A DNA stretch of 32,012 nucleotides from Escherichia coli. GTDB lineage: Bacteria > Pseudomonadota > Gammaproteobacteria > Enterobacterales > Enterobacteriaceae. The translations under genes and the position numbers were made by a program. How positions within the stretch are numbered: the stretch's first letter is position 1; each line of letters begins with the position of its first letter. The notes beneath the pieces were generated by a model. It was not told where the DNA came from and did not search any database. It saw only the letters and a program-made list of their open reading frames with translations. Positions 15,702 through 26,419 of the stretch are shown piece after piece. The stretch lies in assembly GCF_003334385.1 (NCBI RefSeq), contig NZ_QOWN01000052.1, one strand, 5' to 3'.

Positions 15702-17180
15702 TTACGCATTCGACCAGCTCTGGATCGAATCCACATTCCCCAATTCCCCATGCATCACTTCATACGATTTTTTCAGGATCACATCAGTATGTTTGGTTAG
15801 GTCTTTGAAAATGCCTTTATTCATCGCGTCGTAGCGTTTGGCATTGCTCTCAATCGGTATAAAGATATCTTTCACGCGAACCATGTTATCGACAGCCGTT
15901 GCGTAATCCGGGTATAGCCCCAGACCTACCGCTGTATTAATCGCTGCCCCCAGGCTTGCACAACCGTTAATGGCGTTACGTCGTGCCGGAAGGTTGAACA
16001 CGTCGGCAAAAATCTGCATAAACAGATCGCTGTTCGAACCGCCGCCAGTAATGATCACATGCTTCGCAAAGTGATTCATTTCATTACACATATTGTCGTA
16101 ATTGTTCTTCAGCGTCAGCGCCACGCTTTCCAGTATCGAACGATATATCCATGCGTAATCCATGCTGGAATCAAAGCCGATCATAATCCCGCGTTTGTAC
16201 GGTTCCCACGGATTGGTCAGCCAGTCCAGCACCGTCATCAGACCATTACAGCCTGGCGGCACACAAGAAGCTTTTTTGTTGAGTAAATCTTCCGGTGAAA
16301 GATCCTGCGCCCTGGCATCCTGAATTAACGACTCGCCTAGCATGTCGCGCAGCCAGCTCACCGTCCACATGCCTTTGCGAATACCGTAACCTTCATACAG
16401 CAATGTTTGCGGAATAGAAGACATAATCGGCCAGTACGCTACTGGATCTTTCGGCAGTGCTTTGCCGTTCATCATCAATGCGATGTAAGTGCCAAGAGAA
16501 ATTACCGCCGTTTCATCATCCAGTAATCCGGCCCCCAGAGCTTCTACCGGTTTATCACTGGTGGTACAAACAACCGGCAGTCCTGCCGGGAAATGTGTCG
16601 CCAGTGCGGCTTGTGGTGTGATATGTCCGAGGACGGTGCCAGGCATTTGCACATCAAACAGCATATGACGGGGGATATTAAACTTATCCATTACCGCAGC
16701 ATCTTCGCTCCATGCCCAGCTCTTATAATCCACCGGCCACTGACCAAAATAGTTGGCGATATTGTCTTTAAACTCGCCGGTTAAGCGATGCGTCAGATAA
16801 CCCGAAAAAGAGGTGACATATGCCACGTCAGGGTTAGTGTGTTCGTAAGGGCGTGTAACGCGTGCATCCTGCCAGCTAATCAACGGCGCAGCAGGCGTGC
16901 CATCGGCTTTCAATAACGCACGGCAGCAACGGATGGATCCCAGACCAATACCGACAATATCTTCTTTATTCCCGGCAAACTGACTCATCAAATCGTGACC
17001 GGCAAAACATAATGATGCCCATAAATCGTCGTCAGGATGTTCTGCAGTATCGGCATCTGGCGTGTGCATCGGCTGTAATAAGCCTTTGCCTTCGCAAACC
17101 ACGTTACCTTCCAGATCGTACATCACCACTTTTGTGCTCTGACTTCCGCCATCAATCCCTATGATGTATTTTTTCGACAT
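15702..17180 (-). CDS. ygcE: FGGY-family carbohydrate kinase
   Basis: 492 aa ORF MSKKYIIGIDGGSQSTKVVMYDLEGN... with an FGGY N-terminal motif; 26 bp downstream of yqcE, so probably one operon. Confidence 0.85.
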   Translation of the reverse strand: MSKKYIIGIDGGSQSTKVVMYDLEGNVVCEGKGLLQPMHTPDADTAEHPDDDLWASLCFAGHDLMSQFAGNKEDIVGIGLGSIRCCRALLKADGTPAAPLISWQDARVTRPYEHTNPDVAYVTSFSGYLTHRLTGEFKDNIANYFGQWPVDYKSWAWSEDAAVMDKFNIPRHMLFDVQMPGTVLGHITPQAALATHFPAGLPVVCTTSDKPVEALGAGLLDDETAVISLGTYIALMMNGKALPKDPVAYWPIMSSIPQTLLYEGYGIRKGMWTVSWLRDMLGESLIQDARAQDLSPEDLLNKKASCVPPGCNGLMTVLDWLTNPWEPYKRGIMIGFDSSMDYAWIYRSILESVALTLKNNYDNMCNEMNHFAKHVIITGGGSNSDLFMQIFADVFNLPARRNAINGCASLGAAINTAVGLGLYPDYATAVDNMVRVKDIFIPIESNAKRYDAMNKGIFKDLTKHTDVILKKSYEVMHGELGNVDSIQSWSNA

Positions 17181-17206
17181 GATTTTTCTCCTGTAATTTT
17201 CCTGGC

Positions 17207-18484
17207 TTACTTGCTGCTAGCCATTGCGGGGGCGCTATCAGCAGTACGAATTTTTTGGAACAGCAAAAAGGTAAAGACAATCACCATGCCAAGCGCCGCC
17301 ATGCCCATCAGCCACATATTGCGGTAGGCTTCTGCAGCGGGCAGGGTGTCTTGCCAGTGGCCGATAATTGGGTAAACGAAGACATCCGGCAGGAATCCAA
17401 TCACCGAACAAATACCTACCGTGGTGCCCATAATGTAAGACGGTGTTCTCGCTTCGCCAGGGCAGGCCCAGTACAGCCCGCGTGAGGCGTAACAGGTGAA
17501 TCCCAGCAGTAAAATCAGGCCAATCCCCATCGCGACCGATTGCGGGTTAGAGTTCGTGACGAGCAGGGCAGTTAACGTCAGCAGGCCGAGTACGGAAAGG
17601 ATTTGGATCACGCGGGTAGGGGATTTCACTTTGCTGTAGGTGGTGATTATGCCGCCAAGTGGGCCGCACAGCGCGCGGAATATTTTGTTGATCACAATCC
17701 CCATGTAGCTCGCCGCCACCAGCGACATGCCATACATTTCGGTCAGATAGTTGGTGGAGTAACTCAGAATGGCGTAGATGGTGAAGACGCCAAAAATCAC
17801 CATGCTGCAATACCAGGTGGTGCTGATACGCAAAACGGCCAGGATGTCGCTAAGCTGGAATGACTGTTTTTCTTCGTTATTGGCACTGCGCAGGTTGTTG
17901 TTATCGCTAACAAAAAACCAGCACAGAATCCCCAACAAGATGTAAACCACACTATAGATGATAATGACCGTTTTCAGGCTGGTGCTGTCATCCGGTGCAA
18001 AGCGAGAAAAGACCCACATGGTAAACACCGCCAGCGACATTACACCGACGCCGCGCAGCCCTTCCATCCAGCCCATAATTTTCCCTTGCTCGCTATGATC
18101 GCCAAGCAACGATGCAGCTTTAATCGACACCGACCACAGCATTAAAATCGTCGTTATCGCAAAGGCGATCTGAATACAGAGCATTACCCACAGCGGTGGA
18201 TACGTTGCCATTAACAGACCCAGTAATCCGGTAATGATCATCGCGGAAGTAATCATTTTGCGGTGTGAAAATTTATCGGCAATAACGCCGCTGGGGGCAT
18301 AAAGAATAATGGCCGCAATACCAAAGGTACTCATTATTAAACCTATCTCGGTATTGCTGAATCCCATAAATTTCGCCATGGGAATTTGATAAATATAACG
18401 TAAATAAGCCAGGTCGAAACTAACGCCGCCGCTAAAACTAATTATCGCGAGGGTTATCCAACGGCGATATGAGTTGTGTTGCAT
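17207..18484 (-). CDS. yqcE: MFS transporter
   Basis: 425 aa ORF, about 12 predicted transmembrane segments, MFS-like. Confidence 0.8.
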   Translation of the reverse strand: MQHNSYRRWITLAIISFSGGVSFDLAYLRYIYQIPMAKFMGFSNTEIGLIMSTFGIAAIILYAPSGVIADKFSHRKMITSAMIITGLLGLLMATYPPLWVMLCIQIAFAITTILMLWSVSIKAASLLGDHSEQGKIMGWMEGLRGVGVMSLAVFTMWVFSRFAPDDSTSLKTVIIIYSVVYILLGILCWFFVSDNNNLRSANNEEKQSFQLSDILAVLRISTTWYCSMVIFGVFTIYAILSYSTNYLTEMYGMSLVAASYMGIVINKIFRALCGPLGGIITTYSKVKSPTRVIQILSVLGLLTLTALLVTNSNPQSVAMGIGLILLLGFTCYASRGLYWACPGEARTPSYIMGTTVGICSVIGFLPDVFVYPIIGHWQDTLPAAEAYRNMWLMGMAALGMVIVFTFLLFQKIRTADSAPAMASSK

Positions 18485-24880: not shown

Positions 24881-24896
24881 AAATTATCCTTATTAT

Positions 24897-25157
24897 TTAT
24901 CCAAAGCGGTAGGTGATGCCGAATCCGGAAGGCGGATAGCGCCACTGTTGTAGTGTTGATTCGTCGCACAGCAAACGGCAGGTGCCACACTCCAGGCAAC
25001 TGCGATAGTCAATACGTAAGTTACCTTCCGGTGTGAGCGAAAAAAGACCTGCCGGACAGGCGTTAATCAACCGTTCTGCCGTCTGGCGCTCAACGGAGTC
25101 AGCCGGAACAATGTGCGGCGCATCAGCAACGCGCCAGAGATTACGGGCTACAGACAT
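24897..25157 (-). CDS. ygcO: Ferredoxin-like protein (FixX-like)
   Basis: Internal Met start gives 86 aa; cysteine motif CLECGTCRLLC; 5' end overlaps the ygcN 3' end. Confidence 0.75.
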   Translation of the reverse strand: MSVARNLWRVADAPHIVPADSVERQTAERLINACPAGLFSLTPEGNLRIDYRSCLECGTCRLLCDESTLQQWRYPPSGFGITYRFG

Positions 25158-26419
25158 CGCAGACTCCTGATAACATCGCCCGCCAGATGCCACAGGCCGT
25201 GACGACGTAAATGATGCCAGAATAACTGGCGCAGCGGTGGAACAGGTTTATCACCCTGATCCCATAAATCGCGGGAAATATCCTGCATTAACGCAGGCCA
25301 CGTACGGTACCATCCCGGGCGTTGCAAAAGCGCCGGAACATGCTGATAACGCTGTAGAACATCCCACAGCAGGCTGCGCTCTACGTTGTGATGATAAAGC
25401 GGAAACAGATTTTGCGGCTCGCGGTGCTGGCAGGCGCTTATCAGCGTTTGTGCCGCCGCCTGCGCGCCAGTCAGCGCCATATCCATGCCGCGCACGGAAA
25501 TTCCGGTATTGACGCAACTGCGCAACGCATCGCCCACCAGCAGCCAGCCGTTACCGGCGTATTGCACCGGCATACTGTGCAAGCCACCTTCTGGCACCAG
25601 ATGCGCACCATACTCCAGTGATTCCGTGTTTTTGATAAGCGGGCGCACTGCCGGATGCGCTTTAAAGCGAGTCAGCAGCTCGCTTGCCGGAACACGACTT
25701 TGCGTAAGGGAAGAGAGCGGGCAAACAATCCCTAACGAGAGCGTTTGTTGATTAGTATAAAGAAATGCGCCGCCGGGTAAGTCATCACAGATCCTGCCGC
25801 TGAACAGCAACGCTGCGCCTTCGTTATTCTCCAGATGAAAACGTTCTTCAATAGCGGATGTTTCCAGCGACAGCACTTCTTTGATCCCCAACGCCATCGC
25901 TTCGCCAGCAGGACGAGTCACTAACCCGTGACGTTCAGCCAGGACGCTGTTGGCACCTTCTGCCAGCACCACATAACGGGCGCGGAGAATATCGTCACCA
26001 CAAATAACGCCACAGACTCTGCCGTTTTCTTCATACAGTGCATCCACCGTCGCTCCGGGGATGCATTCGACACCTTCTTTTTCGGCTTCGGCAACCAGCC
26101 ACGGATCGAATCGTGCACGTAATACACTCCAGGATTCACCGCCGGGCTGTAAGCTGGAAAACGTCGTTACGCCATCGGGCGTTAACAGGGAAAGGCTTTC
26201 GTGAGTGATGCGTCGTTCAAGAGGCGCGGTCAGATGAAATTGCGGGAGGAGTTCCGCGAGTGCATGGGTATATAACCGCCCGCCGGAAAGATTTTTGCTG
26301 CCGGGGATTTCAGCGCGTTCCAGTAACAAAACGGATAAACCCGCTCGCGCGCAGCGTAACGCGCAAGCGGTGCCTGCAATACCGGCACCAATAATAATAA
26401 TGTCGCAGTCGTCTTCCAT
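25148..26419 (-). CDS. ygcN: ETF-quinone oxidoreductase-like FAD-dependent oxidoreductase (FixC-like)
   Basis: Start at MEDDCDIIIIGAGIAGTACA (FAD Rossmann GxGxxG) gives 423 aa. Confidence 0.8.
   Translation of the reverse strand: MEDDCDIIIIGAGIAGTACALRCARAGLSVLLLERAEIPGSKNLSGGRLYTHALAELLPQFHLTAPLERRITHESLSLLTPDGVTTFSSLQPGGESWSVLRARFDPWLVAEAEKEGVECIPGATVDALYEENGRVCGVICGDDILRARYVVLAEGANSVLAERHGLVTRPAGEAMALGIKEVLSLETSAIEERFHLENNEGAALLFSGRICDDLPGGAFLYTNQQTLSLGIVCPLSSLTQSRVPASELLTRFKAHPAVRPLIKNTESLEYGAHLVPEGGLHSMPVQYAGNGWLLVGDALRSCVNTGISVRGMDMALTGAQAAAQTLISACQHREPQNLFPLYHHNVERSLLWDVLQRYQHVPALLQRPGWYRTWPALMQDISRDLWDQGDKPVPPLRQLFWHHLRRHGLWHLAGDVIRSLRCL

Follow-up and report, generated by a model that had tools for sequence, protein, structure and literature searches.

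The subject of this work is the ygc locus of Escherichia coli, ten genes arranged as ygcE-yqcE / ygcWUSRQ / ygcNOP, together with two RNA leader elements located between its divergent operons. The locus was analyzed in a stretch of 32,012 nucleotides (nt) of contig NZ_QOWN01000052.1 (assembly GCF_003334385.1), hereafter called the window, of which it occupies positions 15702-26419; comparison of this part with E. coli K-12 MG1655 gave 100% identity. RefSeq places there exactly the ten genes named in the original prediction, which a model had made from the nucleotide sequence, and their coordinates agree with the list of open reading frames (ORFs). On the minus strand, yqcE (17207-18484) is the first gene of its operon and, according to RefSeq, codes for a major facilitator superfamily (MFS) transporter belonging to the anion:cation symporter type (425 residues), and ygcE (15702-17180) for an FGGY-family kinase of 492 residues. 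The plus-strand operon starts with ygcW (18803-19588), assigned by RefSeq and NCBIfam to the KduD/IdnO-like subfamily of short-chain dehydrogenase/reductase (SDR) oxidoreductases (261 residues). It continues with ygcU (19658-21112), coding for a flavin adenine dinucleotide (FAD) enzyme of the VAO/PCMH fold with an active site of the alkyl-dihydroxyacetone phosphate (alkyl-DHAP) synthase type (484 residues), ygcS (21134-22543), for a second MFS transporter (469 residues), and ygcR (22521-23300) and ygcQ (23297-24157), for the beta and alpha subunits of an electron transfer flavoprotein (ETF), i.e., EtfB (259 residues) and EtfA (286 residues). Back on the minus strand lie ygcN (25148-26419), for a FixC-like ETF-quinone oxidoreductase (423 residues), ygcO (24897-25157), for a FixX-like ferredoxin (86 residues), and ygcP (24305-24880), for an RNA-binding antiterminator of the GlpP family (PF04309; 191 residues).

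The RefSeq annotation, the ORF list and the gene orientations bear out the three transcription units that had been proposed: yqcE-ygcE and ygcW-Q are divergent, and ygcW-Q and ygcN-O-P are convergent. The predicted gene overlaps are exact on the sequence. Those of ygcS and ygcR amount to 23 nt, with the ygcR ATG at 22521 placed after an AGGAGG and the ygcS TAA at 22541-22543; ygcR and ygcQ have an ATGA in common at 23297-23300, and ygcN and ygcO overlap by 10 nt. None of the ten proteins reached an NCBIfam equivalog cut-off, and family placement held at the superfamily level in searches of NCBIfam and the PDB. As judged by these matches, they are paralogues of known enzymes, not known enzymes themselves.

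The gene list itself is already annotated and is therefore not new. The literature on the ten gene names yielded no functional assignment for any of them, nor did the literature on alkyl-DHAP synthase (ADPS), FGGY kinases and ETF, on betaine-lipid catabolism or on the name of the antiterminator. Overexpression of ygcS was reported to improve the production of nicotinamide mononucleotide, with no mechanism given (PMC8601175), and deletion of ygcU left D-serine signaling unaffected (PMC13012123). A "ygcO" mentioned in one review is a misprint for ycgO. What appears to be new is the conserved leader switch associated with YgcP, the definition of a portable core gene set and the classification of YgcU as an ADPS-type enzyme.

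At least 80% of the span was found in 5061 of 5426 complete E. coli genomes, and its G+C content (0.39-0.56) is around the mean of the species. Because of this, the region behaves as a near-core locus within E. coli. The hallmarks of a genomic island, atypical composition and a patchy distribution within the species, were thus not observed. The term "island" used in the original prediction holds insofar as the same module occurs at unrelated sites in other genera, but not with respect to G+C content or distribution in E. coli.

Leader elements of the divergent operons

The intergenic region between yqcE and ygcW is 318 nt long, and both divergent operons open with a strong intrinsic terminator. 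The terminators (18730-18778 on the plus strand and 18509-18556 on the minus strand) each stop 24 nt before the ATG of the first gene, ygcW and yqcE, respectively. That of ygcW, with a 19-bp stem (18730-18771), was the top terminator-like site in a scan of 13.5 kb; the yqcE stem is imperfect, with 15 of 17 bp formed. Each terminator is overlapped by a hairpin, with which it makes up a leader element. In the ygcW element (18712-18778, plus strand), the hairpin AGUUACC/GGUAACU encloses the loop AGAGAUAAUGAGAAA and overlaps the terminator, which ends in U9; in the yqcE element (18509-18573, minus strand), AUUACU/AGUAAU encloses AGAGACCUGAGAAA and overlaps the terminator ending in U8. The conserved form of the hairpin is AGUUACU-AGAGA-N3-5-GAGAAAAGUAAC, situated just 5' of the terminator, and the loops of the two E. 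coli hairpins read AGAGA-N3-4-GAGAAA. In both leaders, the nucleotides that form the 3' arm and loop of the hairpin also make up the 5' arm of the terminator.

The ygcW leader (18700-18802, 103 nt) folds at -42.4 kcal/mol, with a z score of -7.1. The nascent hairpin of the ygcW element reaches -6.7 kcal/mol, compared with -31.2 kcal/mol for the full 67-nt element including the terminator, and the corresponding values for the yqcE element are -1.4 and -20.7 kcal/mol. As the nascent hairpins are weak relative to the terminators in both leaders, termination is the default state. The intergenic region is present in 5067 of the 5426 complete E. coli genomes, and RefSeq carries no annotation within it. 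No Rfam family matched in the ygc cluster at the gathering threshold, and a permissive scan of positions 18400-18900 gave noise only.

Loci of YgcP homologues, 20 kb each, were collected by exact-sequence look-up from Lelliottia, Leminorella, Clostridium sediminicola, Vibrio hannami, Thalassobacillus, Pantoea and Photobacterium. When the window and these loci were scanned with a regular expression, the element proved to be confined to the leaders of the ygc gene set; each locus had one or two copies, all of them sense-oriented. Twenty-seven distinct copies were found in Enterobacterales, Vibrionaceae, Clostridia, Bacilli and metagenomes, every one of them adjoining a ygc-type cluster. In the metagenomes, the seed GTTACT-N3-14-GAGAAAAGTAACTT (18-20 nt) gave 48 matches at 43 loci. 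Fifteen matches run into a CTTTTCTC-U-run terminator or meet the end of the contig, and all 15 adjoin homologues of ygcW, yqcE, ygcE, ygcP or ygcU; the remaining 33, which lack both the terminator and those genes, are simple palindromes.

A covariance model built from the 27 distinct leaders, R1, scored every true copy at 48-81 bits, and in 343 kb it otherwise recovered only antisense echoes of the same hairpins. The ygcW leader scored 72 bits (E value of 1e-12) and the yqcE leader, which was included in alignment A1, 67.7 bits (8e-12). With this model, no third copy was detected upstream of ygcN or elsewhere in the window.

Pair counts over the 27 leaders showed that the antiterminator helix is 95.8% paired, with switches from G-C to A-U and from U-A to C-G, and that the terminator helix reaches 89.5% pairing and contains five pairs in which both partners changed. 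Alignment column 29 has a standard partner in both helices. Its three A-to-G changes are all matched at column 63 and two of them also at column 9, the third giving a G-U wobble there, as expected from two mutually exclusive structures. The compensatory changes thus lend support to two mutually exclusive pairings in the leaders. Covariation is modest because the element sequence itself is highly conserved, a feature that would suit a protein-binding site.

Sites for the catabolite activator CRP lie upstream of both leaders. The perfect site TGTGATTACGATCACA (18663-18678) is centered at 18670.5, 41.5 bp upstream of position 18712, where the ygcW leader starts, with AGUUACC beginning two nucleotides further on. 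A second CRP-like site, TGTGAGAGTAATCACG (18606-18621), matches 9 of 10 consensus positions and is conserved in Lelliottia; located upstream of the yqcE leader, it is centered 41.5 bp from position 18572, just before AAUUACU on the minus strand. This arrangement would fit two class II CRP promoters with transcripts starting at the antiterminator hairpins. A perfect TTGACA hexamer is also present on the plus strand (18642-18647), upstream of the CRP palindrome. Activation of yqcE-ygcE by CRP has been reported (PMC8085971), a CRP site in the yqcE/ygcW intergenic region was predicted by PhyloScan (PMC1794230), and CRP was footprinted in vitro, with a Kd of ~1.7 nM, on the perfect palindrome between the two genes (PMC12871828).

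YgcP and the antitermination design

YgcP matched the glycerol uptake operon antiterminator of Listeria (PDB 3kts) at 1e-27 over residues 11-184, and its homologues at 99% identity carry PF04309. A YgcP-type gene and the leader element always co-occur. In Bacillus subtilis, the PF04309 regulator GlpP acts on the leaders of glpD, glpFK and glpTQ, in which the promoter is directly followed by a conditional intrinsic terminator, as in the ygc leaders. The experimentally defined GlpP target in glpD's 5' untranslated region (UTR) is laid out in the same way, as GGUC / UGAGAUGAGGAGA / GACC continuing into the terminator: the GGUC/GACC stem surrounds a GAGAU-GAG-GAGA loop, and nucleotides are held in common with the 5' arm of the terminator. 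The published sequence of this GlpP-responsive UTR reads ...CGGUCCUGAGAUGAGGAGAGACCACAGC... into the terminator (supplement of PMC9604022). Two canonical glpP-glpA leaders show GAGAGAUGAGAG and AUGAGACUUUGAG in the equivalent position; at both loci, glpP lies beside DAO/Pyr_redox/DUF1667 glycerol-3-phosphate (G3P) dehydrogenase genes. Catabolite control is also present in both systems, by CcpA for glp of B. subtilis and by CRP for ygc. By this comparison, the ygc leaders are a sequence variant of the GlpP target design.

The two systems differ in several respects. The ygc system belongs to a Gram-negative enteric host, its stem has GUUACU/AGUAAC in place of GGUC/GACC, and the genes that follow the leaders, ygcW (SDR) and yqcE (MFS), are not glp genes such as those that GlpP regulates in B. 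subtilis. Unlike glpP, ygcP lies in a separate unit with the ETF-quinone oxidoreductase genes. GlpP-family proteins sense a phosphate ester, which in the case of ygc is probably not G3P itself, in contrast to B. subtilis GlpP.

Given the GlpP-like target design and the constant co-occurrence of the element with a YgcP-type gene, we infer that YgcP very probably antiterminates both the ygcWUSRQ and the yqcE-ygcE operons. The original prediction had included the antiterminator but not its targets; the two elements between yqcE and ygcW are the candidate targets, and they would link the units into one regulon. In the proposed mechanism, two divergent CRP-dependent promoters would fire into leaders that terminate by default. 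YgcP would be made from the ygcN-O-P unit, whose lack of a leader element fits a regulator needed before induction. It would bind the short hairpin GUUACU/AGUAAC with its GAGA...GAGAAA loop, a hairpin whose 3' half doubles as the 5' arm of the terminator, and the trigger of binding would probably be a phosphorylated intermediate of the pathway. Bound YgcP would block the terminator, allowing RNA polymerase to read into both operons. This regulatory part of the proposal is well supported.

The conserved core and its electron-transfer attachments

The gene set co-occurs across phyla, from Enterobacterales to Firmicutes. Invariant across the related loci are the SDR, the FGGY kinase, the YgcU-type flavoenzyme, the YgcP-type regulator and at least one transporter. 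Identities to the E. coli proteins, Firmicutes included, are 70-93% for YgcW in all related loci (tblastn), 65-90% for YgcU orthologues (with tblastn values deviating by 1-2 points) and 59-90% for YgcP; YgcE is present in every locus at 45-84%.

The best PDB matches of YgcU were ADPS (3e-40), followed by glycolate oxidase (5e-26) and LctD (5e-22), and YgcU orthologues have the FAD_binding_4 and FAD-oxidase_C domains in a matching ADPS architecture (Pfam). Arg262, the Tyr of NMYFVY and HHH438-440 of YgcU align with R419, Y578 and H615-617 of ADPS and are invariant in all eight YgcU orthologues; the PDB contains ADPS point mutants at exactly R419 and Y578. The C-terminal motif is GGSMVHHHGIGKHR in YgcU and GGSLSHHHGVGKLR in ADPS, versus GGTVTGEHGVG in glycolate oxidase. 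Against the GlcD model, YgcU scored 142.6 bits for a cut-off of 567.9, with HHHG in place of GEHG. In a second paralogue found in Clostridium and Photobacterium, which is 19-23% identical to YgcU, the motif is SEHG or GEHG, the Arg is replaced by Glu and the Tyr is missing. These comparisons indicate that YgcU is an ADPS-type rather than a GlcD-type enzyme. The earlier description of YgcU as GlcD-like thus captured its fold but not its active site, which has the Arg/Tyr/HHH set of ADPS and no GEHG.

YgcE has the FGGY_N and FGGY_C domains, and none of its NCBIfam matches, to XylB, LsrK and GlpK, comes near an equivalog cut-off (the best, XylB, at 141.8 versus 380); in the PDB it matched LsrK (2e-29), then glycerol kinases. 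Compared with an approximate GlpK query sequence, it retains the Arg, the Trp and the catalytic Asp, but not Glu84. YgcW scored 350.6 bits against the KduD cut-off of 369. In NCBIfam, YqcE showed weak matches to the D-galactonate and phosphoglycerate transporter subfamilies, and YgcS matched the aromatic-acid, sugar-porter and organic-cation (TIGR00898) subfamilies, none at cut-off.

The original prediction had counted the ETF and FixCX proteins as part of the module. They are indeed present in E. coli, but they are variable, fast-diverging additions rather than members of the conserved core. ETF subunits are 27-49% identical to those of E. coli across the related loci. In Lelliottia (locus L002, 9709-12173, compared with window positions 22521-26419), the ETF and FixCX proteins are just 42-60% identical to their E. 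coli counterparts, versus 90-93% for YgcW, YgcU and YgcP, which suggests that the electron-transfer genes evolve much faster than the rest or were replaced. ETF genes immediately follow ygcU in Vibrio, Clostridium and Photobacterium and are absent from the Pantoea and Thalassobacillus clusters, and FixC and FixX are restricted to Enterobacterales among the related loci. The Leminorella and Pantoea modules lie at chromosomal sites different from that of E. coli; the module is therefore mobile between genera, with an exchangeable electron-transfer attachment.

YgcN matched FixC of a solved FixABCX complex (PDB 7koe_C) at 3e-57, and YgcO scored 82 bits against the FixX cut-off of 166. The nearest solved structures of YgcR are the canonical ETFs 1efp_B and 1efv_B, and YgcRQ as a whole is closest to the canonical, non-bifurcating ETFs 1efp and 1efv. 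EtfB, EtfA, FixC-like and FixX-like proteins are thus all present, but all score below the equivalog cut-offs and represent paralogues, not FixABCX itself. E. coli has other paralogous sets of ETF and FixC/FixX-type genes tied to a specific pathway, fixABCX (next to caiTABCDE) and ydiQRST. Unlike these, the ygc set is divided over two convergent operons, accessory to the core and poorly conserved.

Additional genes accompany the module in some relatives. In Clostridium sediminicola (L006, 422-3909) and Photobacterium gaetbulicola (L012, 14803-18207), a second set resembling LctBCD, composed of the GEHG/SEHG-type FAD paralogue, EtfB and a ferredoxin-fused EtfA, directly follows the YgcU-ETF unit; it may hint at a D-2-hydroxyacid as a product of the pathway. 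Four marine or halophilic lineages have a divergent BCCT transporter gene joined to the cluster (L006, 1-386; L008, 10715-12286; L010, 4387-5928; L012, 8353-9990). These transporters score ~300 bits versus equivalog cut-offs of 541-695, and as no equivalog is matched, no substrate is given; in the marine relatives, the BCCT transporter stands in the place of YgcS. Because of the BCCT transporters and the match of YgcS to the organic-cation subfamily, there is a hint that the substituent of the substrate may carry a quaternary ammonium group in BCCT-bearing organisms. In V. hannami, a TauE-family gene lies ~2 kb from the cluster. In Leminorella, a gene for a PHP-domain protein (YcdX-like phosphoesterase) is inserted between ygcP and the ETF genes (L004, 10564-11319); several genes of this cluster look split, and it is possibly decaying.

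At its edges, the E. coli locus is flanked by queE and an array of clustered regularly interspaced short palindromic repeats (CRISPR) on one side and by queD and cysJIH on the other. The array is of type I-E (14669-15062, repeat GTGTTCCCCGCGCCAGCGGGGATAAACCG) and is situated between queE and ygcE. At ~15530-15655, directly next to the stop codon of ygcE, there are two or three degenerate remnants of repeats, and after them a GC-rich hairpin. In Lelliottia, queD...queE is arranged in the same way, with no CRISPR array. The queD stop codon and the ygcN start are separated by 77 nt (26420-26496) with neither a terminator nor a leader element, and partial co-transcription of ygcNOP with queD is possible. 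Between the convergent ygcQ and ygcP, no clean intrinsic terminator was visible at 24160-24270; palindromes resembling repetitive extragenic palindromic sequences or bacterial interspersed mosaic elements (GCCGGATG...CCTAC and GCCTGATAAGACGCG...CGCATCAGGC) occupy this gap and are likely to form the end of both convergent transcripts. The sole Rfam match in the window at the gathering threshold is a sok-type antitoxin RNA (RF01794, 31620-31777, 113 bits), which implies a hok/sok-like locus downstream of cysH; the counterpart position in Lelliottia (L002, 2930-3082) carries a HOK_GEF gene.

A proposed pathway and its alternatives

The best general reading of the locus remains that of the original prediction, a catabolic module combining uptake, phosphorylation, flavin- and ETF-linked redox chemistry and a GlpP-type antiterminator, and it is strengthened by the conservation of the gene set across phyla. 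The proposed substrate class, a polyol or sugar derivative, was too broad, as the evidence points to a skeleton of the glycerol or DHAP type. We consider it reasonably probable that the genes form a catabolic regulon for such a compound with a phosphorylated inducer. The account that we favor, at somewhat better than even chances, is that the region forms a single regulon by which a small molecule is broken down, with both antitermination and pathway as proposed here.

In the proposed pathway, YqcE and/or YgcS would import a compound with a glycerol-like end, i.e., a 1-substituted glycerol. YgcE would phosphorylate it to a G3P analogue, the likely inducer, and YgcW would oxidize the adjacent secondary alcohol to give a 1-substituted DHAP. 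YgcU would then act on carbon 1 of this ketone phosphate by flavin chemistry of the ADPS type and release the substituent, and its flavin electrons would pass to the ETF YgcRQ, to YgcN/YgcO and on to the quinone pool. This specific four-step ADPS-type chemistry is tentative, and we give it less than an even chance.

Known systems resemble parts of this scheme. ADPS (AGPS, EC 2.5.1.26) works on carbon 1 of 1-substituted DHAP via a covalent flavin adduct, and YgcU has its FAD domain and catalytic Arg, Tyr and HHH loop, but differs from it by being coupled to an ETF, which implies net electron transfer. Ether-lipid metabolism has three head-group steps: alkylglycerol kinase makes 1-alkyl-G3P, acyl/alkyl-DHAP reductase is an SDR, and ADPS is the third enzyme. 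In that system, alkylglycerol, alkyl-G3P and alkyl-DHAP are interconverted by the kinase and the SDR, and the ygc cluster likewise has a kinase and an SDR; by analogy, its core would supply the same three activities. Unlike that of ADPS, its context is catabolic and includes solute transporters, which makes a small, polar substituent more probable than a fatty chain. In the lactate dehydrogenase-ETF complex LctBCD of Acetobacterium woodii (PDB 7qh2), the gene of a FAD_binding_4 dehydrogenase lies beside etfB, etfA and a permease gene, as in ygc, and LctD donates electrons to the ETF, as we propose for YgcU. LctD, however, has a metal-binding GEHG-type site and the EtfA of the complex a ferredoxin domain; a set of this kind is separate in Clostridium and Photobacterium and is not found in E. 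coli. Erythritol catabolism in Brucella follows the same logic, with an FGGY kinase (EryA) giving a polyol phosphate that is oxidized by a flavoenzyme (EryB) linked to the respiratory chain. There, EryB belongs to the GlpD family and not to the VAO/ADPS type, the regulator is a SorC-type DNA-binding protein, and the ery isomerases have no counterpart in ygc.

A bolder and unlikely extension is that YgcE, YgcW and YgcU run ether-lipid head-group synthesis backwards in an ETF/quinone-coupled manner, opening a bond that hydrolases cannot cut, and that the phosphorylated intermediate is the ligand of a new specificity class of the GlpP family in Gram-negative bacteria. The substrate may then be a 1-O-, 1-S- or 1-N-substituted glycerol, which would be phosphorylated, oxidized to a DHAP derivative and cleaved by covalent flavin chemistry. 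For the BCCT-bearing marine relatives, a candidate is glyceryl-trimethylhomoserine, the deacylated head group of a betaine lipid. Another compound, 2,3-dihydroxypropane-1-sulfonate (DHPS), was considered and set aside, as E. coli K-12 reportedly excretes DHPS formed from sulfoquinovose without degrading it further.

Several observations weigh against the regulon and pathway proposed here. The link between YgcP and the leaders comes from sequence comparison, and the likeness of the ygc leaders to canonical GlpP leaders from three sequences compared by eye. Covariation is limited, as double changes affect just two of the seven antiterminator pairs, and many of the 27 leader sequences are related to each other. 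YgcU (484 versus 584-658 residues) has no equivalent of the N-terminal domain of ADPS, which is ~200 residues long; the two align from ADPS residue 194-215 onward. ADPS performs no net redox chemistry, so that simple analogy does not account for the requirement for an ETF, and the ETF is missing from the Pantoea and Thalassobacillus clusters. YgcE is 21% identical to glycerol kinase (measured with the approximate GlpK sequence), which does not settle what it binds, and which of the kinase and the SDR would act first is guesswork.

Other explanations differ mainly in the role given to YgcU. It could be a GlcD/LctD-type dehydrogenase passing electrons from a D-2-hydroxyacid or a free polyol to the ETF, with the SDR and the kinase converting a polyol to a ketose and a ketose phosphate. 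Its two Pfam domains, its matches to the glcD model (1.5e-41) and to LctD in the PDB, and the SDR-FGGY pair, classic for pentitol and hexitol catabolism, agree with this idea. Yet we regard it as improbable, given the score of YgcU far below the GlcD cut-off, its HHHG and Arg where 2-hydroxyacid dehydrogenases have GEHG and Glu, and the existence of a true GEHG-type paralogue as a separate gene in the Clostridium and Photobacterium clusters; in addition, a polyol-to-ketose-phosphate route needs no third, invariant flavoenzyme. A similarly improbable explanation is a second route for glycerol or G3P, in which YgcP would sense G3P, YgcE would be a glycerol-type kinase, and YgcU with the ETF would serve as an alternative G3P dehydrogenase feeding the quinone pool. 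YgcP does belong to a G3P-responsive antiterminator family and the leaders resemble glp leaders, YgcE matches glycerol kinases, and the closest solved relatives of YgcU bind a DHAP moiety. However, glpK, glpD and glpABC already serve this purpose in E. coli, the invariant SDR would be left without a role, and the transporters are of the BCCT or MFS types instead of the GlpF/GlpT types. YgcP-type proteins, 59-90% identical to one another, are moreover just 31-50% identical to the rest of the GlpP family, and their genes always accompany the ygc gene set, not glpFK or glpD.

Electrons might also flow in reverse, with YgcN/O and YgcRQ bringing reducing equivalents from the quinol or NADH pool to YgcU, which would use them to cleave its substrate reductively. 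A parallel would be the proposed feeding of crotonobetainyl-CoA reductase by FixABCX in the carnitine respiration of E. coli. YgcNO and YgcRQ are paralogues of FixCX and FixAB, and anaerobic relatives carry the ferredoxin-fused EtfA typical of bifurcating or confurcating systems. That fused ETF, however, pairs with the second, GEHG-type paralogue and not with YgcU, YgcRQ itself is closest to non-bifurcating ETFs, and activation by CRP fits the catabolism of a carbon source; we thus find reverse flow quite implausible. The explanation to which we give the least credence, and very little of it, is that the leader hairpins are ordinary terminators, insulators or repeated palindromes with no dedicated antitermination, upstream of genes that are largely silent or cryptic in E. 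coli. The terminators are strong, no phenotype of the genes was found in the literature, and covariation controls are imperfect for related sequences, all of which this explanation would accommodate. A terminator between a promoter and the first gene makes sense only if it is conditional, though, and GUUACU...GAGA...GAGAAA is kept across three bacterial classes in a fixed orientation, only beside YgcP-type genes. Protein conservation of 59-93% across phyla and the presence of the locus in ~93% of complete E. coli genomes likewise argue for a working system.

The ten ygc genes count among those of the best-studied bacterium that have long lacked a functional assignment. The ADPS-type active site of YgcU limits the substrate candidates to derivatives of glycerol or DHAP, and it raises the prospect that bacteria employ for catabolism a type of flavin chemistry hitherto known from the synthesis of ether lipids. 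Should YgcP control both operons through the leader elements, deletion of the terminators or forced expression of ygcP would switch the cluster on, and a leader-reporter fusion would provide a screen for the inducer. GlpP-type antitermination would then reach Enterobacterales and Vibrionaceae, with a sequence-defined RNA site that is absent from Rfam.

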